The position numbers and the translations under genes were made by a program. A stretch of 64,000 bases of DNA, from positions 2,492-66,491 of the forward strand of contig JBKKCR010000084.1 of the NCBI GenBank assembly GCA_046712825.1. The letters run 5' to 3'. Positions 11,624 to 39,795 of this stretch are shown here, piece by piece. The DNA is from Actinomycetota bacterium (GTDB taxonomy: Bacteria > Actinomycetota > AC-67). The notes beneath the pieces are model-generated. The model was not told the DNA's origin and made no database searches. It saw only the letters and a program-made list of their open reading frames with translations. The stretch's first letter is position 1. Every line of letters starts with the position of its first letter.

Positions 11624-13942
11624 ATGGACAAGATGGAGCTCAACGGGAAACGCGAAGCTGCACCGAACATGCAGCGGTCCCGGTTCTACCGCCTGGGGAC
11701 GTTCGCCTACCGCAGACGCGTCTGGGTTCTGATCGCGTGGGTCGGGATCCTCTTCGCCCTCGGCCCGGCGCTCGGAAAGATCTCGGACAACCTTTCCCAA
11801 GGAGGGTTCGAGGTTCCGGGCTCGCAGTCGGACTTCGTCGCGAAGGCGGTCGAGAACGACTTCTCCGCGTACGAGCTCACGGACCTGCTTGTCATGAAGT
11901 CCGGCACGCTCACCGCTACCGACCCGAAGTTCCGCCAGACGTTCGAGACGGTGCGCGATGCGCTGCTCAAAGCGCCGGGTGTCGCCGCGGTGTCCGACCC
12001 CTACGCGGCCCCCGAGCGGTCGATCTCGCGCGACGGGCATGTGCTCACCGCGACCGTCGGGATCACCGACGACCAGGACCAAGCCCTCGCCCACAACCCC
12101 GCGGTCGAGAAGGCCGTTGAGGATGCCGCGAGGGGGAGCGGTATCACGGCGCTCGTCACCGGCGCGCCGCCCTTCTACGCGGCGTTCGAGCACACCACAA
12201 CCACCGACCTTGAGCGCGCCGAGCGGATCGCGCTGCCGATCACGCTGATAATCCTCGTGATCGCGTTCGGTTCGGTCGTCGCGGCCGGCGTTCCGCTGGT
12301 GATGGCGCTGGTCGGTCTCGGCGTCGCGTTCGGAGTGATCTCGATCATCGCCAGCCAGACGACGGTCAGCACATTCGCGCAGAACACGGCGTCGATGGTC
12401 GGCATCGGCGTCGGGATCGACTATTCGCTGTTCATCCTGACGCGGTTCCGCGAGCATCTGAGGAACGACCGCGCCGTGTCGCAGGCGATCGCCGAGGCGA
12501 TGGCCTCGAGTGGCAAGGCGGTTTTCGTCTCGGCGATGACGGTCGTCGTGGCGCTCGCCGGCACGCAGCTCGTCAACGTTGCCGCGTTCCGGTCCATGGG
12601 CTTCGCGCCGATGATCGCGGTAGCGCTCGCGGGCGCGGCCGCGCTGACGCTGCTTCCGGCGTTTCTGGGGCTGCTCGGTCGCCGCGTCAACAAGTGGGCG
12701 ATCAAACGCAAGCGTTCGGTCGAGGGCGCGGTATGGCATCGCTGGGCCATGACGGTCATGCGTCGCCCATGGACGGCGCTCGCCGTATCGGTCCTGATCC
12801 TCGGCGTGCTCGCGGCGCCGGCGGTCGGCTTGCGGATGGGGTCGTCTGGGCCGTCGATCCTGCCGCCCGACGCGGGTCCACGGGTCGCCGCTGAGATAAC
12901 CGCGGAAGCGTTCGGCGAGGGCCAGGTCGCCCCCGTTCAGATCGTCGTCGACCACCCGCGCGGCGTCCTCGGCGCCGGGTTCACCGATATCTACGCGCTT
13001 GCGCAGGAGATCGCGACCGATCGTGAGGTTGCACGGGTCGACTCGGTGGCCACGATCCTCCCGAACGCACCGCCGCAGCAGGCTCTGGCCGTGGCGAACT
13101 CGCCGCAGGCGAAGCCCTTCGTGTCCACCCTTGTGGCGCGGAACGGAACCCGAACGATCCTCTACGCAGTCACCAAGCACGGCCCGCAGTCGGACCCCGT
13201 CGACGCGTTCGTCGAACGGCTACGCGACCAGCTACCGAGAACCCTTCCCGCAGGAGTCACGGCTGCGGTCGGCGGCGACGGCGCGCTCAACACCGACATC
13301 AATAACGAGATGCAGAACAAGTTGATCCCGGTCGTCGGGCTGGTGATGTTGCTCTCCTTCCTGGTGCTGATGCTGTTCTTCCGCAGCATCTTGCTCCCGC
13401 TCAAGGCCATCTTGATGAATACCGCGTCCGTGCTCGCCACGTACGGCGTGATCGTGTTCATCTTCCAGCAAGGGCATTTCGAGGGGCTGCTCGGGTTCGA
13501 GTCCACCGGAAACATCGACTCGTTCCTGCCGCTGTTCCTCTTCTGCATCCTGTTCGGCCTGTCGATGGACTACGAGGTGTTCATGCTCGCGCGCATCCGC
13601 GAGGAATACCTGCGGACGCACGACAACACCGAGGCGGTCGGCTGGGGCCTCGAGCACACCGCGCGGATCATCACGAGTGCAGCGCTCGTCATGGTGACCG
13701 TGTTCGGCGCGTTCGCGTTCGCGTCGCTGGCGCCGATCAAAGCCATGGGCTTCGGCCTGGCGACCGCGGTGTTCCTCGACGCGTCGCTCATCCGGGTCGT
13801 TCTCGTCCCGGCGACGATGCGGTTGATGGGGGACTGGAACTGGTGGCTGCCGAAGTGGCTCGACCGCATCCTGCCTAAGGTCTCCGTCGAGGAAGAGCTG
13901 GCCTACATCGAGCCGGAGCCCGAGCCCGCCGGAGCGCGCTAG
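11624..13942 (+). CDS. MMPL family RND-type membrane transporter
   Basis: 772 aa with two 6-TM bundles separated by periplasmic domains. Typical MmpL N-terminus (RFYRLGTFAYRRRVWVLIAWVGILF). Sits 17 bp downstream of the TetR gene. Confidence 0.9.
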   Translation: MDKMELNGKREAAPNMQRSRFYRLGTFAYRRRVWVLIAWVGILFALGPALGKISDNLSQGGFEVPGSQSDFVAKAVENDFSAYELTDLLVMKSGTLTATDPKFRQTFETVRDALLKAPGVAAVSDPYAAPERSISRDGHVLTATVGITDDQDQALAHNPAVEKAVEDAARGSGITALVTGAPPFYAAFEHTTTTDLERAERIALPITLIILVIAFGSVVAAGVPLVMALVGLGVAFGVISIIASQTTVSTFAQNTASMVGIGVGIDYSLFILTRFREHLRNDRAVSQAIAEAMASSGKAVFVSAMTVVVALAGTQLVNVAAFRSMGFAPMIAVALAGAAALTLLPAFLGLLGRRVNKWAIKRKRSVEGAVWHRWAMTVMRRPWTALAVSVLILGVLAAPAVGLRMGSSGPSILPPDAGPRVAAEITAEAFGEGQVAPVQIVVDHPRGVLGAGFTDIYALAQEIATDREVARVDSVATILPNAPPQQALAVANSPQAKPFVSTLVARNGTRTILYAVTKHGPQSDPVDAFVERLRDQLPRTLPAGVTAAVGGDGALNTDINNEMQNKLIPVVGLVMLLSFLVLMLFFRSILLPLKAILMNTASVLATYGVIVFIFQQGHFEGLLGFESTGNIDSFLPLFLFCILFGLSMDYEVFMLARIREEYLRTHDNTEAVGWGLEHTARIITSAALVMVTVFGAFAFASLAPIKAMGFGLATAVFLDASLIRVVLVPATMRLMGDWNWWLPKWLDRILPKVSVEEELAYIEPEPEPAGAR

Positions 13943-20931: not shown

Positions 20932-21531
20932 ATGACGCGCACGGGTGGCGAGGAGCGGCGTCGCCAGCTCATCCACCACGCGGTCGCGCTGTTCGGTGGC
21001 CGGGGGTACGAAGGCACCAGCCTCGACGCGGTCGCCGAAGCATCCGGCGTGCGTAAGCAAACGCTCCTGTACTACTTCCCGGGGAAGGACGAGCTGTTCG
21101 ACGCCTGCATCGGCGAGCTCGCGACCCGGCTGTCGTCGGCGCTCGAACGGGCCCTGGAAGGGGAGGACGAGCGGGAGCGCCCCGAGCGGGTGATCTCGGC
21201 CATCTTCCGTCTGGCGGAGGAGTGGCCGGAGTTCCCGCCGTTCGCGCGCGAGGCATCCCGGCGCGGCCCCGAGGTGATCCAACGGGTAACCGGAGTTCTC
21301 GAGCCCCTGCGGAAGCGGGCCCTCGTTCATCTCGAGCGCGGCATGGACGACGGCACGTTCCGCCGCCAAGACCCGACGTTGCTGCTGTTCACCCTCTACA
21401 CGGCCGTCGTGGGATCGCTGACCGAGGCGGGTGTCTTGCGGGCGTTGGGCGGTGGGCAGCAGAGCCGAAGCGCGCTGAAGCGCCGCGAGGAAGAGCTCGT
21501 GGAGTTCGTGCGACGGGCGCTCGAGCCGTGA
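20932..21531 (+). CDS. TetR family transcriptional regulator
   Basis: HTH: RRRQLIHHAVALFGGRGYEGTSLDAVAEASGVRKQTLLYYFPGKDELF. Confidence 0.8.
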   Translation: MTRTGGEERRRQLIHHAVALFGGRGYEGTSLDAVAEASGVRKQTLLYYFPGKDELFDACIGELATRLSSALERALEGEDERERPERVISAIFRLAEEWPEFPPFAREASRRGPEVIQRVTGVLEPLRKRALVHLERGMDDGTFRRQDPTLLLFTLYTAVVGSLTEAGVLRALGGGQQSRSALKRREEELVEFVRRALEP

Positions 21532-21911
21532 AAGCCGCGGAGCGCCGAACGATCTCCCCGCTAAACCTCCTGATCGGGGACGCTATCGCGATCGCGATGT
21601 TCGCGGTTATCGGGCTAGCGCGCCATGAGGAAGGCATCACCGTCGGAGGGGTCGCACGCAACGCACTGCCGATCCTGGCCGCTTGGTTCGTCGTCGCGGC
21701 GTTCGTGGGGACGTATTCGCAGCCGGGCCTCCGCACGATGCTCATCACCTGGGCGATCGCCGTCCCGGCCGGCGTCGCGATCAGAGCGATCGTGCTGAGC
21801 CGGCCGGCCGACGGATCTCAGGTCGTGTTCGGGATCGTGACGATGACGGTCACGGTGGTATTGCTGCTCGGCTGGCGCGCGATCGCGGCGATGGTTTCGA
21901 GCAGGCGCTAA
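21528..21911 (+). CDS. small 4-TM membrane protein (DUF3054-like)
   Basis: GTG start overlaps the TetR stop (GTGA). The hydrophobic helices begin at LLIGDAIAIAMFAVIGL. The DUF assignment is from memory of family character only. Confidence 0.55.
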   Translation: MKAAERRTISPLNLLIGDAIAIAMFAVIGLARHEEGITVGGVARNALPILAAWFVVAAFVGTYSQPGLRTMLITWAIAVPAGVAIRAIVLSRPADGSQVVFGIVTMTVTVVLLLGWRAIAAMVSSRR

Positions 21912-21918
21912 GCGCTCC

Positions 21919-22344
21919 TCAGCCGCGATCGAGCTCCAGCGACGCGCTGTTGATGCACCAGCGCTGACCGCCGGCTTCGCGGGGCCCGTCATCGAAGAGG
22001 TGACCGAGGTGGGAGCCGCAGCGGGCGCATCGCACCTCCGTTCGGACCATCCCGTGGCTCCGGTCCTCGTGCAGGATCACCGCCTCGGGTGAGACCGCCT
22101 CGGTGAAGCTCGGCCATCCGGAACCCGAGTGGTACTTGACGTCGCTCTTGAAAAGGACGTTGCCGCATGCCGTGCACCGATACGTCCCGTCGTCCTCGGT
22201 GTCGACGTACTCGCCGGTGAACGCTCGCTCGGTGCCGGCCCCCCGCAGGATGCGGTACTGCTCCGGCGTGAGCCGTGCCCGCCACTCCTCTTCGGTGGTG
22301 GGCAGACGATCGCTCTCTCTGGCCACGACCCCTCCTCCCGTCAT
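21919..22344 (-). CDS. msrB: peptide-methionine (R)-S-oxide reductase MsrB (zinc-binding type)
   Basis: Two CxxC pairs (CTACGN, CARCGS) and the catalytic RCxxCGxHLGHVF-type motif ([17 protein letters not shown]). Confidence 0.85.
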
Positions 22345-22375
22345 CGAACACTCTAGTTCCGGTGTGGGCGGTAGC

Positions 22376-22401
22376 GTATTGACAATCATTCTCATTATCT
22401 C
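22376..22401. promoter_or_regulatory. AT-rich Zur-box-like operator in the msrB/znuA divergent promoter
   Basis: tatTGACAATCATTCTCAttatc is a 21-bp AT-rich island in a 70 percent GC genome. It matches the actinobacterial Zur consensus TGAAAATCATTTTCA at 13 of 15 positions. A Fur-family (Zur) gene ends the downstream operon. Confidence 0.5.
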
Positions 22402-22414
22402 TTACGGTCCCGGC

Positions 22415-23323
22415 ATGGCTTGGACCGGTTGGAGGCCCGGCGTCGTCGCGGTGGCGCTCGCGATGGCTTCGGCTGGCTGCGGGGGCAGCGGAGCGCCGCC
22501 GGGGCCCGGCCTGGACGTCGTCGCGGCGTTCTACCCGCTGGCCGAGGCGGCGCGTCAGGCCGGCGGGCCATTCGTTCGCGTCCACGACATCACGCCCACC
22601 GGCGTGGAGCCGCACGACCTCGAGCTGAAGCCGAGCGATGTTGGGCTGATCCGCTCGGCCGACCTCATCCTGTACCTCGGCGGTGGGTTCCAGCCGGCTC
22701 TGGAGGACGCGATCGGGGCCATCCCCAACAAGACCACCGCAGTGGACCTGCTCGAAGGATTCCCCCTGACGAAGGACGCCGACGACGATGAGGCTACCGA
22801 TCCTCACGTCTGGCTGGATCCGTTGCTCATGATCCGCATCGTCGAGCGGGTGGCCGAGGAGATGAGCGCGCGGCTCTCGGAAGAGCAGACGGTGTTCGAG
22901 AGCCGCGCCTTCACCCACAAGACCTCGCTCGAGGAGCTGCATCGCAGCTTCCGGGCCACGCTGGCCACGTGCGGGCGGCGGGAGATCGTTACCGCACACG
23001 CATCGTTCGGATACCTCGCGGCTCGGTACGGATTGGAGCAGATCGCCATCTCCGGTTTGTCGCCCGAGGCCGAGCCGTCGCCTCGGCGGCTCGAGGAGGT
23101 CGCCCGGATCGCCAAGCAGCGCGGCGTGAAGACGATCTTCTTCGAGACATTGGTCAGCCCGCGCGTGGCCGAGACGGTTGCTCGCACGGTGGGGGCGCGC
23201 ACCGCGGTGCTCAACCCGATCGAGGGGCTCACCGAGGAGCAGCGGACCGCAGGCGAGGACTACGTGTCGTTGATGCGGGCGAACCTGGCAGAGCTCGCGT
23301 TGGGGCTGCAATGCAAGAGCTGA
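22415..23323 (+). CDS. znuA: zinc/manganese ABC transporter substrate-binding lipoprotein (ZnuA/TroA cluster 9)
   Basis: Lipobox LAMASAGCGG and cluster-9 SBP sequence (HVWLDP, acidic/His loop DADDDEATDPH). The long N-terminal extension of the six-frame ORF is antisense to msrB and is discarded. Confidence 0.85.
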   Translation: MAWTGWRPGVVAVALAMASAGCGGSGAPPGPGLDVVAAFYPLAEAARQAGGPFVRVHDITPTGVEPHDLELKPSDVGLIRSADLILYLGGGFQPALEDAIGAIPNKTTAVDLLEGFPLTKDADDDEATDPHVWLDPLLMIRIVERVAEEMSARLSEEQTVFESRAFTHKTSLEELHRSFRATLATCGRREIVTAHASFGYLAARYGLEQIAISGLSPEAEPSPRRLEEVARIAKQRGVKTIFFETLVSPRVAETVARTVGARTAVLNPIEGLTEEQRTAGEDYVSLMRANLAELALGLQCKS

Positions 23324-24060
23324 GCGACCGCACACCGAAAGACGCCGTGCTCGAGGTTCGTGAGATCGAGTTCGCCTTCGAAAGCGGACGCGTTCTCAAC
23401 GCCGTGAGCCTCGCCGTACGGCCGCGCGACTTCCTCGTGCTGCTCGGGCCCAACGGCAGCGGCAAGAGCACGTTGGTCAAGGTCGCGCTCGGCCTGCTCG
23501 AGCCCGCCGCCGGAACGGCGGCCTTATTCGGGCTTCCCGCCCGGGATCCGCGCGCGCGAGAGAACGTCGGTTACGTGCCGCAGCGCGCCGCGATCTCTTC
23601 GCGGGTGCCGGCGACGGTCGCCGAGGTGGTCCTCACCGGGCGTGTGCACGGCTCCCCGTTCGGCGTGTTCCGGCGCGCGGACCGGGAGGCCGCCGCGAAG
23701 GCGCTCGACCGCGTCGGACTCGCGCACCTGGCCGGTCGCCGGATCGGCGAGCTGTCCGGCGGTGAGCAGCAGCGCGTTCTCATCGCGCGCGCTCTGGTGT
23801 CCGACCCGAGGCTGCTCGTGCTCGACGAGCCCACGGCCGGTGTCGACAAGGAGTCGCAGTCGCGATTCGCCCAGGTCTTGCGGGACCTGAATGCCTCGGG
23901 CGTCACGATCGTGATGGTGGCCCACGACGTCGGCGCCGTCGGACCCCACCTCACGCGCGTCGTCGCCCTCCATCAGGGGCATCTCGACGAGATCCCGCTC
24001 GAGGAAGCGCGCGAGCAGATCGGGATGTTCGTCGAGGACCACCCGTCGGGTGGCCACTGA
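23311..24060 (+). CDS. znuC: zinc ABC transporter ATP-binding protein
   Basis: Walker A GPNGSGKST, signature LSGGEQQR, Walker B LLVLDEPT. Confidence 0.85.
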   Translation: MQELSDRTPKDAVLEVREIEFAFESGRVLNAVSLAVRPRDFLVLLGPNGSGKSTLVKVALGLLEPAAGTAALFGLPARDPRARENVGYVPQRAAISSRVPATVAEVVLTGRVHGSPFGVFRRADREAAAKALDRVGLAHLAGRRIGELSGGEQQRVLIARALVSDPRLLVLDEPTAGVDKESQSRFAQVLRDLNASGVTIVMVAHDVGAVGPHLTRVVALHQGHLDEIPLEEAREQIGMFVEDHPSGGH

Positions 24061-24881
24061 TGGGCTTCTTCGAGCTGTTCTGGATGTCGGTCGTGGCCGG
24101 CGCGGCCGTCGGGGCGGCGGCGCCGTCGATCGGGACGTTCGTCGTGCAGAAGCGGCTCTCACTGATCGGCGACGGCATCGGGCACGTCGCGTTCGCCGGC
24201 GTTGCGTTCGCGCTCTGGCTCGACGTGTCGCCGCTCGCCGCGGCGCTCACGTTCGCCGTGCTGGGAGCGATCGGGATCGACGTGATGCGTCGCCGCAGTC
24301 CGGAGGAGGCCGACATGGGCCTCGCGCTGTTCTTCTACGGCTCGATCGCGTTGGGCGCGGTCGTGCTGCAGCTCGGCGGGTCGTTCAACGCGGGGCTTCT
24401 CGGGATCCTGTTCGGTCAGGTGCTGAGCGTCACCGCCGGCGAGCTCGTCACGATCGTGGTGCTCGCCGTGTTCATCCTCGGCGTCGTCGCTTTGAGCTAC
24501 CGCGGCTTGGTCACCGTCGCGATCGATGAGGAGGCGGCGGTCGTTCGCGGGCTGCCGGTCGGCGCGCTCAACGCCGGGCTCATGATGCTCACGGCGTTGA
24601 CGATCGGGGTCGGGATGCGTGTCGTGGGCATCCTGCTCATCGCGGCCATGATGGTCCTGCCGGTGGGCATCGCGCGCAACGTCGTTCGGAGCTTCAAGGC
24701 GACGCTGGTGACCGCGTCGCTGGTTGGGGCTGCGTGCGCGGTTGCGGGGATCGCGGCCTCGTACGCCTTGGACACGGTGCCCAGCGGCACCATCGTCCTC
24801 GTCGCGGTCGCCGCGTACCTGATCTCGGACGCGGTGCGGCTCGCGCGGCGTTCGCTCGCGCGGGGGAGGGTCGCTGCGTGA
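24060..24881 (+). CDS. znuB: zinc ABC transporter permease (ABC-3 family)
   Basis: 8-9 TM helices typical of the ZnuB/TroCD family. Overlaps the znuC stop by 1 bp (TGATG). Confidence 0.85.
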   Translation: MGFFELFWMSVVAGAAVGAAAPSIGTFVVQKRLSLIGDGIGHVAFAGVAFALWLDVSPLAAALTFAVLGAIGIDVMRRRSPEEADMGLALFFYGSIALGAVVLQLGGSFNAGLLGILFGQVLSVTAGELVTIVVLAVFILGVVALSYRGLVTVAIDEEAAVVRGLPVGALNAGLMMLTALTIGVGMRVVGILLIAAMMVLPVGIARNVVRSFKATLVTASLVGAACAVAGIAASYALDTVPSGTIVLVAVAAYLISDAVRLARRSLARGRVAA

Positions 24882-25300
24882 GGCGCGAGACGAAGCAGCG
24901 GAGCGAAGTGCTGGCGTCGCTCGCCGGTGGTGAGGCGCTGTCGGCGCAGGAGTTGCACGATCGGTTGCGCCACGCGGGGAGCCGGACGGGTCTGGCGACC
25001 GTCTACCGGACGCTGCGTATGCTCGTCGAGGACGGCGTCGTCGACGTCTTGCGCGAGGACCCGGTCCAGCTCCGGTACCGCGTCTGCTCTGTCGAGCACC
25101 ATCACCATCTCGTGTGTGAGTCCTGCGGCCGGGTCGAGGAGATCCCCGAGTGCGACGTGAGCGAGTGGGCGGTCCGCGTCGCCCGGCCGCGCGGGTTCCG
25201 TGTCCGAACACATCGCGCCGAGATCCTCGGCGTGTGCGGGACGTGCGCAGGCGACGTTAGAAAACCTCGGAGCCGTCGTCCGCGGACCGCTCCGGCCTGA
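24878..25300 (+). CDS. zur: Fur-family metalloregulator, probable zinc uptake regulator Zur
   Basis: GTG start overlaps the znuB stop (GTGA). Metal site HHHHLVCESCG...CGTC. Operon context is znuACB. Confidence 0.8.
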   Translation: MRRETKQRSEVLASLAGGEALSAQELHDRLRHAGSRTGLATVYRTLRMLVEDGVVDVLREDPVQLRYRVCSVEHHHHLVCESCGRVEEIPECDVSEWAVRVARPRGFRVRTHRAEILGVCGTCAGDVRKPRSRRPRTAPA

Positions 25301-25568
25301 GCACGACGACGCCGGCCGGCGTCTGGACGCCGAGGACCAGACATTCCGACACGACGCCGGCGATCCGCTTCGGCGGAAGATCCACGAGCGCGACGACCTG
25401 CGACCCGACCAGGTCGGCTGGGGAATAGAGGTCGGTGATCTGGGCGCTCGAGCGCTTGCGCCCCGCGGCACCGAAATCGATCTCGAGCACGTAGGCAGGC
25501 TTGCGGGCCCCCGCGAGCGGTTCCGCCGACACGATGGTGCCGACCAGGGCCTTTCCGCTCAGCTCCAT
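25257..25568 (-). CDS. tRNA-binding (Myf/EMAP-type OB fold) domain protein, CsaA-like
   Basis: GKALVGTIVSAEPLAGARKPAYVLEIDFGAAG...SSAQITDLYSPADLVGSQVVALVDLPPKRIAGVVSE matches the CsaA tRNA-binding fold. Its 3' end overlaps the zur 3' end by 44 bp (convergent). Confidence 0.7.
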   Translation of the reverse strand: MELSGKALVGTIVSAEPLAGARKPAYVLEIDFGAAGRKRSSAQITDLYSPADLVGSQVVALVDLPPKRIAGVVSECLVLGVQTPAGVVVLRPERSADDGSEVF

Positions 25569-25610
25569 GCCGGCGCCATCATCGGCGGCGGAACCCCTTG
25601 ACGGCAAGGA

Positions 25611-26261
25611 ATGAACCGTTGTTCAATCCTTGCGATGCCGTACCGGCGGACGGAGTTGATGGAGGAGCGGCTCGCGGAGACGCGCGAGCGGATCGTGCGG
25701 GCCGCGCTCGGCCTTATCGCGCGCGGCGGCTATCGCGAGGTGTCGGTCGCGGCCGTGGCCGACGAGGCCGGTGTCGCGACGGGAAGCGTCTACCGGCACT
25801 TCTCTTCGAAGGCCGACCTCTTCGCCGAGGTGTTTCGTCGCGCGTCCGGGCGCGAGCTGGCGGTGGTGCGCGCGGTCGCCGCGCGCACGGACGCGCGACC
25901 CACAGAGCGCCTGGTAGCGGCGCTGGAGACCTTCGCCCGCCGGGCCCTCAGCGGCCGGCGGCTCGCGTACGCACTGATCGCCGAGCCCGCCGACCCGGCG
26001 GTCGACGAGGAGCGGCTCCGGTTCCGCCGCGCGTACCGCGATGTGTTCGCGAGGCTGCTGCGCGAAGCGATCGCGGCCGGCGAGCTTCCGGAACAAGACG
26101 TCCAGGTCGTCGCATCAGCTTTGGTGGGTGCGATGGGGGAGGCCCTCGTCGGGCCGTTGTCGCCGTCGGCGCGAGCCCGGAACCCCGGACGGCTCATCGA
26201 GGCGATCGTTCGGTTCTGCACCCGTGCCATCTCTCGGGAGGTCTCGTATGCCAACGCATGA
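25611..26261 (+). CDS. TetR family transcriptional regulator
   Basis: HTH: TRERIVRAALGLIARGGYREVSVAAVADEAGVATGSVYRHFSSKADLF. Confidence 0.8.
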   Translation: MNRCSILAMPYRRTELMEERLAETRERIVRAALGLIARGGYREVSVAAVADEAGVATGSVYRHFSSKADLFAEVFRRASGRELAVVRAVAARTDARPTERLVAALETFARRALSGRRLAYALIAEPADPAVDEERLRFRRAYRDVFARLLREAIAAGELPEQDVQVVASALVGAMGEALVGPLSPSARARNPGRLIEAIVRFCTRAISREVSYANA

Positions 26262-37098: not shown

Positions 37099-37172
37099 GG
37101 GCCCGTAGCTCAATCGGTTAGAGCACCGGACTCATAATCCGTTGGTTCCTGGTTCGAGACCAGGCGGGCCCA
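37099..37172 (+). tRNA. tRNA-Met (anticodon CAU), elongator-type (or possibly Ile2, which needs lysidine modification)
   Basis: Manual cloverleaf: acceptor GGGCCCG/CGGGCCC, D-arm GCTC...GAGC, anticodon loop CTCATAA, T-arm CCTGG-TTCGAGA-CCAGG. The 1-72 pair is intact, so it is not an initiator. No encoded CCA. Confidence 0.85.
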
Positions 37173-37176
37173 CACG

Positions 37177-39795
37177 GTGAGCAAGGACCTTCCAACAGGC
37201 GTCGTGACCTTCATGTTCACGGACATCGAAGGGTCGACCAAGCTCGTTCGCGAGCTCGGCGACCGGTACGGCGACGTGCTTGCCGATCAACGCCGGATCC
37301 TCCGAGAGGTTTGGCTAACCTGGCGGGGCGTCGAGCGAAGCACGGAGGGCGATTCTTTCTTCATCGTGTTCCGTTCGGCTGCGGATGCCGTCGGAGCGGC
37401 CGCGGAGGCGCAGCGAAGGCTGGCTGCGCACGAGTGGCCGCACGGGTGCCGGGTTCGTGTGCGCATAGGCATGCATACCGGCGCGACGCTCGTCGTGGAC
37501 GACGACTACTTCGGCATCGACGTGAATCGCGCCGCGCGGATAGCCGGCACGAGCCACGGAGGGCAGGTCGTGCTCTCCCGTGCGACGCGCGATCTCCTCG
37601 ATCCGCCGCCGGCGGGGATCGCGCTCAAGGACCTCGGCGAGCACCGCTTGAAGGACCTCGAGGAGCCGGAGTGGCTGTACCAGCTCGTCGGAGAAGGTCT
37701 GCCGGACGAATTCCCCGCGCTCCGCAGCCTCGAAGTCCCAACGAATCTCCCGACCCCTGCAACTTCGCTGATCGGTCGCGCGGCCGAGGTCGCCGAGCTG
37801 GAGGCACTGCTCGAACGGGACGAAACGAGGCTCGTCACGTTGACCGGACCCGGCGGCGCCGGCAAGACCCGGCTCGCGATCGAGGCGGCCGCGCGCGTGC
37901 GCGAGCGCTTCGCGAACGGCGTCTTCTTCGTCTCGCTGGCGGCGGTGACCGACCCCGCGGATGTGCTCCCGACGATCGCTCACGTCCTCGGCGTGGAGAT
38001 CGGATCCCGCAGGGTCGAAGAACGCCTGGCCGAAGACCTCCGGGTCCGATCGCTTCTTCTCGTGCTCGACAACTTCGAGCGCGTCGCGCGCGCTGCCCCG
38101 GGGATCGCAGCGCTTATCGCGGCGGCTCCTCGCCTGAAGGTTCTCGCGACGAGTCAGGCGTCCCTCCGGATCGGCGGGGAGCGCGAGTACGCCGTCGGTC
38201 CACTGGCGACCTCCGCCGGCACCGGCGGCCCCGAGGCGATCGACGACTCACCCGCCGCCGCGCTATTCCTCGAGCGAGCGCGAGCGGTAAAGCCTTCCTT
38301 GCGCGTGACGGCGGCGGATGCGGACGCCGTTCTCGAGATCTGCCGCAGGCTCGACGGGCTTCCTCTGGCGATCGAGCTGGCGGCCGCCCGGATGAAAACG
38401 CTTGCGCCGGGTCAGATCCTCCAACGGTTGGAAAGCCGGCTGACGCTTCTCAGGGGCGGTGCGCGAGACCTCCCTGCACGTCAGCAAACGCTGCGCGACA
38501 CGATCGCGTGGAGCGTCGATCTCCTCGAGCCTCCGGCCGCTTCGCTCTTCCGACACTTCGCCGTCTTCTCGGGCGGGGCAACCATCGATGCGCTCGAGGG
38601 CGTGCTCTCAGGTGACGACGAGGATCCGCTCGGTGCGCTCGACGTGCTCGTCGACCACAACCTCATCATCGCGACCGAGGCACAGGAGAAGCGATTCGAG
38701 ATGCTGCAGACGATCCGCGAGTTCGCGCTGGATCTGTTCGAGGGCTCCGGCGATGCGGAGGATCTCCGGGGCGCGCACGCCTCGTACTTCGCGGGCTTCG
38801 CTGAACGGGCCGACGCGGAGCTACGCGGGGCGGCCCAGAGCGAATGGCGGGTTCGTATCGAGGCCGAGCTCGCGAACTTCCGCGCGGCGCTCGCGTGGTG
38901 TTTCGAGGACGCTTCGCCGGGAGACCGGACCGTGCTCGGCGCGAGGCTCGCCGGAGCGCTCGGCTGGTTCTGGTACACGCACGCGGATGCGCTCGAGGGG
39001 TGTCGCTGGCTGGATCTCGCCCGGGAGAAGGTTCCGCACGCCGGCACAGAGCTGCGGGCCCGGGTCTTGGCGAGGCTCGGGGTGCTCCACGATCAGCGCG
39101 GAGACTTCGAGCCCGCCGCGCGGCTGTTCGAATCGGCCCTCGCCGCCTACCGGGAGCTCGGGGATCGGAGCGGGGTTGCGTCATCGCTCAACAGCTTGGG
39201 GTCGGCTGCCCGCAACGCCGGCGACATCCAGCGGGCCCGGACGTTCTTCGCGGAGAGCTTGTCGATAAGGCGCGCGATCGGGGATCCGGGCGGCGAAGCT
39301 TCCTCGACACACAACCTCGCCGTGATCGCGCTCGACGACGGGGATGGAGAGAGCGCGCGCGAGATGTTCGAGCGATGCATCCGGCTGGACGAGGCGGCCG
39401 GAAACGATTGGGGAGTTGCGGTCGACGGGTGCGGCCTCGCCGACGCGCTGCTGCTCGTCGGTGAGATCGAAGCCGCGGAAGCCAAGGCGGTCGAGTCGCT
39501 TCACGCCCTCGCATCCATCGGGGAGCGCGACTGGATGGCGGAGGCGCTGTCGATCATGTCGGGGATCGCGGCTGCGCGCGGCGACTTCGTCCGCGCCGCC
39601 CGGCTCGCCGGTGCGGCTTGGGGAACATGGAGGACGATCGGTTTTCCCCCCGTCGGCAAAGACCTAGAGCGTCATCACAAGCATTCCTCGGCGGCACGGG
39701 CCGGGTTGCCGGCCGCGGAGTTCGAGCGGGCGCACCTCGAGGGAGAGGCGATGACATTCGACCAGGCGATCGAGTACGCGACGCGCGCTCGCTGA
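37177..39795 (+). CDS. class III adenylate/guanylate cyclase domain-STAND NTPase-TPR protein without DNA-binding output
   Basis: N-terminal cyclase motifs (VTFMFTDIEGSTKL, GDSFFIVF, RVRIGMHTG), P-loop GPGGAGKTRLA, and C-terminal TPR-like repeats. It resembles the Mtb Rv0386/Rv1358 class but has no LuxR HTH. Confidence 0.85.
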   Translation: MSKDLPTGVVTFMFTDIEGSTKLVRELGDRYGDVLADQRRILREVWLTWRGVERSTEGDSFFIVFRSAADAVGAAAEAQRRLAAHEWPHGCRVRVRIGMHTGATLVVDDDYFGIDVNRAARIAGTSHGGQVVLSRATRDLLDPPPAGIALKDLGEHRLKDLEEPEWLYQLVGEGLPDEFPALRSLEVPTNLPTPATSLIGRAAEVAELEALLERDETRLVTLTGPGGAGKTRLAIEAAARVRERFANGVFFVSLAAVTDPADVLPTIAHVLGVEIGSRRVEERLAEDLRVRSLLLVLDNFERVARAAPGIAALIAAAPRLKVLATSQASLRIGGEREYAVGPLATSAGTGGPEAIDDSPAAALFLERARAVKPSLRVTAADADAVLEICRRLDGLPLAIELAAARMKTLAPGQILQRLESRLTLLRGGARDLPARQQTLRDTIAWSVDLLEPPAASLFRHFAVFSGGATIDALEGVLSGDDEDPLGALDVLVDHNLIIATEAQEKRFEMLQTIREFALDLFEGSGDAEDLRGAHASYFAGFAERADAELRGAAQSEWRVRIEAELANFRAALAWCFEDASPGDRTVLGARLAGALGWFWYTHADALEGCRWLDLAREKVPHAGTELRARVLARLGVLHDQRGDFEPAARLFESALAAYRELGDRSGVASSLNSLGSAARNAGDIQRARTFFAESLSIRRAIGDPGGEASSTHNLAVIALDDGDGESAREMFERCIRLDEAAGNDWGVAVDGCGLADALLLVGEIEAAEAKAVESLHALASIGERDWMAEALSIMSGIAAARGDFVRAARLAGAAWGTWRTIGFPPVGKDLERHHKHSSAARAGLPAAEFERAHLEGEAMTFDQAIEYATRAR

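Follow-up and report, generated by a model that had tools for sequence, protein, structure and literature searches.

A predicted Zur operator within the znuA promoter of a divergent msrB/znuACB-zur locus in an uncultured Actinomycetota lineage

Does a palindrome located between two divergent transcription units, one for protein repair and one for zinc uptake, serve both of them or only one? This question is raised by a stretch of 64,000 nucleotides (hereafter the window) from the metagenome-assembled genome (MAG) of an Actinomycetota bacterium of the GTDB lineage AC-67 (assembly GCA_046712825.1, contig JBKKCR010000084.1, positions 2,492 to 66,491). The gene msrB, coding for a methionine-R-sulfoxide reductase, is located on its reverse strand, while the genes znuA-znuC-znuB-zur, which code for a putative zinc importer and a zinc uptake regulator (Zur), follow on the forward strand. 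An earlier note, made from the sequence alone, had seen a Zur-box-like AT island in the region between msrB and znuA, had placed msrB under apparent Zur control and had also considered that the site controls only znuA. Our analysis makes it very likely that the box is the operator of the Zur protein encoded in the operon, that it is built into the znuA promoter for Zur repression with autoregulation and that msrB has a promoter of its own.

The AT island was indeed found, at positions 22377–22399, which read tattGACAATCATTCTCAttatc and lie between msrB (reverse strand) and znuA-znuC-znuB-zur (forward strand). Its core is the 15-bp near-palindrome TGACAATCATTCTCA (22380–22394, assigned to neither strand) with a 7-1-7 organisation and 6/7 complementary positions between the half-sites TGACAAT and ATTCTCA; the extended 21-bp form, tatTGACAATCATTCTCAtta, spans positions 22377–22397. 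The G + C content of the 60-nucleotide bin at 22350–22409 is 47%, compared to 62–80% for most of the adjoining bins. Chromatin immunoprecipitation on microarrays (ChIP-chip) with the Zur protein of Streptomyces coelicolor (ScZur) yielded the 15-bp motif tGaNNatSatNNtCa, and a computation over 17 genomes yielded the 21-bp motif taaTGaNAANNNTTNtCANta for actinobacterial znuA (PMC5472717). The box of the window matches the former at all 11 specified positions (0 mismatches) and differs from the latter at one flanking position only.

Neither a second copy of the exact 15-mer with up to three mismatches nor a second zero-mismatch copy of the degenerate pattern TGANAATNNTTNTCA was found in the 64-kb window. 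A scan with a Zur weight matrix, which had been proposed earlier as a check, was performed with a matrix obtained from 77 boxes located upstream of znuA in related loci; a few of these boxes belong to the window's own clade. The box scored 38.8 bits, while the next unrelated position reached 6.4 bits (128 kb, both strands), which is far beyond chance. Within the 64-kb window, no other Zur box was found in either the motif or the weight-matrix scans. An inverted-repeat finder with a 6-nt seed gave no match at the box because the central mismatch leaves exact seeds of 3 nt only. The palindrome was therefore judged by eye and with the weight matrix. Two matches to the Zur motif with one mismatch, at 21838 within a DUF3054 gene (loose motif) and at 37205–37219 (TGACCTTCATGTTCA, 33 nt downstream of a tRNA), are not among the best-scoring positions of the weight matrix and are apparently chance matches, and TGATAATCCTCGTGA at 12246 is not above chance expectation. 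The sole match of an Rfam scan of the whole window was the tRNA at 37099–37172, with no RNA element in the gap between msrB and znuA.

For comparison, at least 160 loci with relatives of ZnuA (mostly 45–55% identity) were fetched from genome and metagenome collections. Nearly all of them belong to Actinomycetota, including Gaiellaceae, Acidimicrobiia, Micromonospora, Actinoplanes and others. Close relatives were retrieved individually; the matches listed contain one of these (L081), and the nearest named relatives of ZnuA among them are Gaiellaceae at about 54% identity. P0008 and P0021 are represented by gene maps without DNA. A box with at most two mismatches to the ScZur motif is located between −150 and +30 of znuA in 77 of the 132 usable loci among the matches listed, compared to 4/132 and 1/132 for equal-sized coding-region controls from the same set. 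Boxes of this kind are enriched upstream of znuA across Actinomycetota. The empirical consensus upstream of znuA is TTATTGAGAATCATTCTCATTAT, and the window has GTATTGACAATCATTCTCATTAT.

In Gaiellaceae-type loci (L001, L015, L016, L022, L024, L028 and many others), zur does not terminate the operon and is instead located immediately upstream of znuA in divergent orientation. The box in these loci (e.g. CGAGAATCGTTCTCA) falls at about +4 to +16 of the estimated znuA start. This position may result from errors in the estimated starts or, alternatively, from a single box shared by zur and znuA.

The 63-nt sequences that terminate at the start codon of znuA were aligned for 12 loci, which revealed an invariant block, ATTGACAATC-TT-TCAT (22378–22395 in the window), with two variable positions inside the box. 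The columns left of the box, i.e. on the msrB side, showed no conservation in this 12-locus alignment. A perfect TTGACA at 22379–22384 (forward strand) is invariant in the 12 loci, overlaps the left half of the box and is the predicted −35 hexamer of znuA. The predicted −10 hexamer is TACGGT (22403–22408, forward strand), a TAnnnT element with an 18-bp spacer from the −35 hexamer and 6 nt before the ATG. The 12 loci all share its T, A and final T, and it precedes the ATG or GTG of znuA by 6–9 nt in all of them, without a Shine-Dalgarno sequence. In M. tuberculosis, TANNNT centred 7–12 bp upstream of mapped start sites is the dominant −10 element, and leaderless transcripts are common (PMC3898074). 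The znuA mRNA of the window is apparently leaderless or nearly so, since the −10 hexamer is only 6 nt away from the ATG and no Shine-Dalgarno sequence is present. The box would then occupy about −35 to −21 of znuA and overlap the −35 hexamer and the spacer. This layout would correspond to a strong housekeeping-sigma promoter with a leaderless mRNA.

The regulator that would bind the box is encoded by the last gene of the operon. As the earlier note had described, this is a Fur-family gene that overlaps znuB: zur (24878–25300, forward strand; 140 amino acids) begins with the GTG at 24878 in a GTGA overlap. Its product passes the PF01475 (FUR) model with 96 bits against a cut-off of 23. Compared to structures in the PDB, the best matches are ScZur (3mwm, 1.4e-29) and M. 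tuberculosis FurB/Zur (MtZur; 2o03, 2.5e-29), followed at a large distance by Fur (best 5e-16), PerR (1.8e-13) and Nur (3eyy, 2.9e-9). Residues D56, C70, H74–77, C80, C83, E96, H112, C120 and C123 of the window protein align with D65, C79, H84–87, C90, C93, E105, H122, C130 and C133 of ScZur. We take the ScZur sites to be a structural Cys4 site formed by two CxxC pairs and two regulatory sites, D65/C79/H85/H87 and H84/H86/E105/H122, an assignment that reportedly goes back to Shin and co-workers in 2011. The accessible part of a Zur regulon review places ScZur H84 in the D site, which is consistent with this assignment. Every residue presumed to be a zinc-site ligand in ScZur is kept in the window protein. 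By sequence, the protein is far closer to the solved actinobacterial Zur proteins than to Fur, PerR or Nur, so that we classify it as an actinobacterial-type Zur with predicted zinc-dependent DNA binding. The length of the C-terminal tail varies among its relatives, with proteins of 132 to 160 amino acids.

The transporter points in the same direction. znuA (22415–23323, forward strand) encodes a substrate-binding lipoprotein of 302 amino acids and cluster A-I (PF01297, E = 1.2e-72), with a signal peptide and a lipobox-like ...MASAGC at the N-terminus. The closest solved relatives are B. subtilis YcdH, pneumococcal AdcA and streptococcal Lmb/Lbp, and manganese binders scored much lower; YcdH, AdcA and Lmb are Zur- or AdcR-regulated zinc binders. 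Residues H67, H131 and H195 are shared by 23 homologues without exception and align with the histidines of YcdH and AdcA in EPHD, DPHVW and (T/Q)H(A/T)(S/A)FGY. In cluster A-I proteins, His as the third metal ligand goes with zinc and Glu with manganese. A long His-rich loop is absent, and a short acidic stretch, DADDDEATD, precedes His131. Based on these features, ZnuA is classified as a three-histidine zinc-type binding protein. znuC (23311–24060, forward strand) encodes the ABC ATPase (PF00005, ABC_tran; best NCBIfam model AztA, below its cut-off), and znuB (24060–24881, forward strand) the ABC-3 permease (PF00950, E = 5e-57; nearest NCBIfam models AztB and ZnuB). znuA overlaps znuC by 13 nt, the ATG of znuB overlaps the TGA of znuC by 1 nt and znuB and zur share the GTGA mentioned above. 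These end-to-end overlaps are consistent with znuA-znuC-znuB-zur being a single, translationally coupled operon.

On the other side of the box, msrB (21919–22326, reverse strand) codes for a protein of 135 amino acids with a SelR domain, which reaches 170 bits for TIGR00357 (cut-off 113). In an alignment, the two CxxC pairs (C51TAC54 and C100ARC103) coincide with those of 2k8d, 3cez and MsrB3, and the catalytic Cys124 stands in an RxCxN context (RWC124INS). The cysteines are kept in 7/7 aligned clade members. The earlier description of a zinc-type MsrB with both pairs present agrees with these data, and the residue pattern identifies the protein as the zinc form. Ser69 (in SGSGWPSF) is present in 7/7 aligned clade members as well, the same position being Cys in 3cez, Ser in human MsrB3 and Thr in 2k8d. 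We take residue 69 to be the position of the resolving Cys; Ser69 would imply a one-Cys mechanism with recycling via sulfenic acid and an external thiol.

The most likely start codon of msrB is the GTG at 22326. It is preceded by the Shine-Dalgarno sequence GGGAGGAGGG (22330–22339) and yields 135 amino acids as in the gene calls of the relatives, with N-termini that line up. The alternative start at ATG 22344 was rejected, as the resulting extension is unconserved and would contain the Shine-Dalgarno sequence. The intergenic region, for which 70 bp had been noted, hence measures 88 bp (22327–22414). A candidate −10 element of msrB, TAGAGT (22350–22355, reverse strand), was predicted 23 nt upstream of the GTG with the Shine-Dalgarno sequence in between. 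A similar element (TAGAGT, TAGAAT or GAGACT) is located 22–24 nt from the start in 8/9 msrB loci examined, and 48 nt from it in L165. Upstream of msrB, inspection by eye revealed no SigR/SigH-type promoter (GGAAT-N18-GTT). The box of the window is 1 nt away from the would-be −35 position of msrB (22373–22378) and covers roughly −37 to −51 of the promoter predicted for this gene.

If Zur control of msrB were a conserved interaction, the distance between the box and the msrB −10 element would be expected to be kept, which is not the case. The distance measures 24 bp in four cases (the window, L081, L161 and L166), and 33, 35, 39 and 57 bp in L163, L168, L167 and L164, respectively. In L165, the proximal gap upstream of msrB has no Zur box; the box is located about 1 kb away, past inserted genes. 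Orthologues of msrB thus do not have the box at a fixed position relative to their own promoter, as would be expected of a Zur regulon member.

The divergent arrangement of msrB and znuACB-zur is kept in 10 loci, and concatenated ZnuACB-Zur sequences share 74–90% identity in the seven compared loci. The whole neighbourhood, comprising CBS, TetR, DUF3054, msrB, znuACB-zur and an Rv2525c-like gene, is equally conserved, so synteny alone says nothing specific about msrB and znuA. An extracytoplasmic function (ECF) sigma factor gene and a zf-HC2 anti-sigma factor gene lie between msrB and znuA in L165, where the block of box and promoter remains with znuA. A csaA-like gene for a tRNA-binding protein, whose homologue in the window converges on zur, is the divergent upstream neighbour of znuA in L169, and unrelated genes take this place in L121 and L049; the block is kept in all three. 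Irrespective of the upstream gene, the box accompanies znuA. The apparent Zur control of msrB that had been suggested is thereby reduced to adjacency: Zur control of msrB is most likely not a conserved feature, and the linkage of msrB to the box most likely reflects inherited synteny. The suggestion that the site controls only znuA holds to the extent that the data are best explained by control of znuACB-zur as the conserved role of the box; a local effect of Zur on msrB is possible in this particular organism.

The ECF sigma and anti-sigma factor genes deserve mention in their own right. In L165 (2964–3874), they are divergent from msrB, and the anti-sigma factor is of the zinc-binding ZAS type (zf-HC2). 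A similar pair is found directly downstream of zur in L168 (6049–6903), so that the pair recurs beside the zinc/MsrB locus. It recalls the thiol-stress systems SigR-RsrA and SigH-RshA, which control msr genes in model actinobacteria.

Taken together, the match to the motif, the cognate zur gene in the same operon, the phylogenetic footprinting and the zinc-type transporter lead us to interpret the palindrome as a Zur box. Several points weigh against this interpretation and the predicted promoter layout. A scan of 21800–25700 for sigma-70 and terminator consensus sequences gave no match, and TACGGT agrees with TATAAT at 3/6 positions; the assignment of the znuA −10 hexamer is based on conservation and on the TAnnnT rule of actinobacteria, which is less strict. 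ZnuA scored below the NCBIfam equivalog cut-offs (AztC 149 bits against 350, ZnuA 90 bits against 268), as did the other operon products for the ZnuB, ZnuC and Zur models. The missed cut-offs weaken only a claim of exact orthology, which is not made here, these models being built from distant taxa. The classical Fur box is TGATAATnATTATCA, from which the box of the window differs by two mismatches; since Fur-family boxes for different metals are similar, the sequence of the box alone is no proof of zinc specificity. Finally, the gap of 24 bp to the msrB −10 element is identical in four loci, including the more distant L166, in spite of diverged gap sequence, which is a weak hint that the geometry could matter for msrB. 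The similarity to a generic Fur-type 7-1-7 consensus, the unreached zinc-specific thresholds and the additional matches to the MntC and MntA models could also be explained by an iron Fur, manganese Mur or nickel Nur system, with a transporter that imports manganese or iron. We regard a different metal as highly improbable: Zur structures match the regulator by about 13 orders of magnitude better than those of Fur, PerR and Nur, all presumed zinc-site ligands of ScZur are kept and the third ligand of ZnuA is His, compared to Glu in manganese binders, with zinc binders as best matches.

There are two ways in which the box could act on msrB. At a shared operator, a Zur dimer (or dimer of dimers) would block both back-to-back promoters and co-repress msrB; derepression of both msrB and the importer would follow from zinc starvation or from oxidative inactivation of the cysteine-zinc sites of Zur. 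Such an operator is in line with the 24-bp gap shared by four loci and with the position of the box next to the would-be msrB −35, which a footprint of the ScZur type (about 38 bp; PMC5472717) would cover. Oxidation of M. smegmatis Zur by NaOCl leads to derepression of its regulon (PMC5430705), which provides a rationale for tying methionine-sulfoxide repair to Zur. Nevertheless, we consider co-repression unlikely, given the gaps of 33–57 bp in other members of the clade, the same −10-like element upstream of an msrB gene without a box in L165 and the lack of conservation on the msrB side. Induction of a zinc-requiring enzyme during zinc starvation would also contradict the usual logic of Zur regulons, msrB was not found in any Zur regulon in the literature searched and the accessible part of the Zur regulon review contains no msr genes. 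The opposite effect would be zinc sparing, with zinc-loaded Zur recruiting RNA polymerase from a position upstream of the −35, so that the zinc-containing MsrB is made only when zinc is plentiful. ScZur activates zitB in this manner from a Zur box located 8 nt upstream of the −35 hexamer (PMC5472717). The centre of the window box at about −44 of the predicted msrB start would suit an activator, as would the poor predicted msrB −35 (TACGCT), which is what activator-dependent promoters would have, and positive control by zinc would make physiological sense for the zinc form of MsrB. Activation is improbable all the same: the geometry of box and msrB differs between members of the clade and is not found in L165, the start site of msrB is a predicted one, the upstream sequence that zitB needs for Zur oligomerisation is here taken up by the znuA promoter and coding region, and no precedent for such control of msrB was found in the literature searched. 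If confined to the sub-lineage of the window, L081, L161 and L166, the proposal that one box serves both promoters and couples the zinc-dependent MsrB to zinc status or Zur oxidation is tentative and somewhat unlikely. If true, a Zur-coupled MsrB, whether co-repressed or activated like zitB, would add a protein-repair enzyme to the Zur regulon, for which no precedent was found in the literature searched.

For the znuA operator as the preferred interpretation, the sequence of events would be as follows. When zinc is sufficient, a zinc-loaded Zur dimer would sit on the −35 hexamer and the spacer and exclude RNA polymerase, keeping znuA-znuC-znuB-zur off. When zinc becomes scarce, Zur would lose its regulatory zinc and leave the DNA, allowing the high-affinity importer to be made. 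As Zur itself would be made upon derepression, negative autoregulation would result. msrB would be transcribed in the opposite direction from its own promoter (−10 at 22350–22355), and in the sub-lineage of the window, Zur could incidentally damp or enhance this transcription. We infer the binding and regulation steps as well as their zinc dependence from the characterised systems of S. coelicolor and M. tuberculosis.

Compared to these systems, the locus of the window features a Fur-family Zur with aligned ligand residues, as known from S. coelicolor (znuACB, SCO2505–2508) and M. tuberculosis (Zur/FurB), and presumably the same repression by promoter overlap. Shared with S. coelicolor are the 7-1-7 box tGaNNatSatNNtCa upstream of znuA and the linkage of zur to znuACB; the accessible part of the review marks S. 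coelicolor zur as autoregulated, and by analogy the same would apply to the window. Based on the same regulator subtype, operator motif, target operon and autoregulation, we expect the locus to work like the Zur/znuACB circuit of S. coelicolor. Differences exist in the number of boxes, as S. coelicolor znuA has two (PMC5472717) and the window a single one, which merges with a perfect −35 hexamer, TTGACA, in a promoter that is apparently leaderless, and in the host, an uncultured and deep-branching Actinomycetota lineage. On the msrB side, the placement of the box just upstream of the −35 region resembles S. coelicolor zitB and would be compatible with activation. Unlike at zitB, the hypothetical target would be msrB instead of a zinc exporter, and the box abuts the −35 rather than lying 8 nt upstream of it, with a geometry that varies among relatives. 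The combination of lipoprotein, ABC-3 permease and ATPase is also known from the B. subtilis importer YcdH (ZnuA)-YceA-YcdI and the streptococcal AdcA/Lmb importers. In contrast to those systems, the window has a ZnuA without a long His-rich loop and a regulator of the actinobacterial Zur type. The Zur box of Bacillus is of the TCGTAAT type, whereas that of the window is of the actinobacterial type.

With these results, the canonical Zur/znuACB circuit of actinobacteria is extended to a deep-branching, uncultured lineage of Actinomycetota, in which the operator is nearly identical. The compact design predicted here, in which the operator and the −35 hexamer of a leaderless promoter are merged, helps regulon annotation in MAGs. 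The sole potentially surprising element is control of a zinc-type MsrB by zinc or Zur, and as the comparative evidence gives no support for a conserved trait, the general significance is modest.

Some further observations concern the surroundings of the locus. Outside the clade, proximity of msrB to znu genes was seen in a single case among the at least 160 loci listed, a MAG of Saccharibacteria (L052, 287–4467). Here, msrB is located 1.3 kb downstream of znuACB, behind znuB and on the same strand, with two small open reading frames for membrane proteins in between; this proximity is probably coincidental. In the window, genes for a TetR-family protein and a DUF3054 membrane protein (20932–21911) overlap in a GTGA and end 8 bp from the stop codon of msrB, towards which they are convergent. 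The block of CBS, TetR, DUF3054 and msrB is syntenic in most of the clade, with the CBS gene missing in L166. At the other end of the locus, a csaA-like gene with a tRNA-binding domain (25257–25607, reverse strand; PF01588; TIGR02222 at 109 bits, just below the cut-off) is convergent with zur and shares 44 bp with the 3′ end of the latter.

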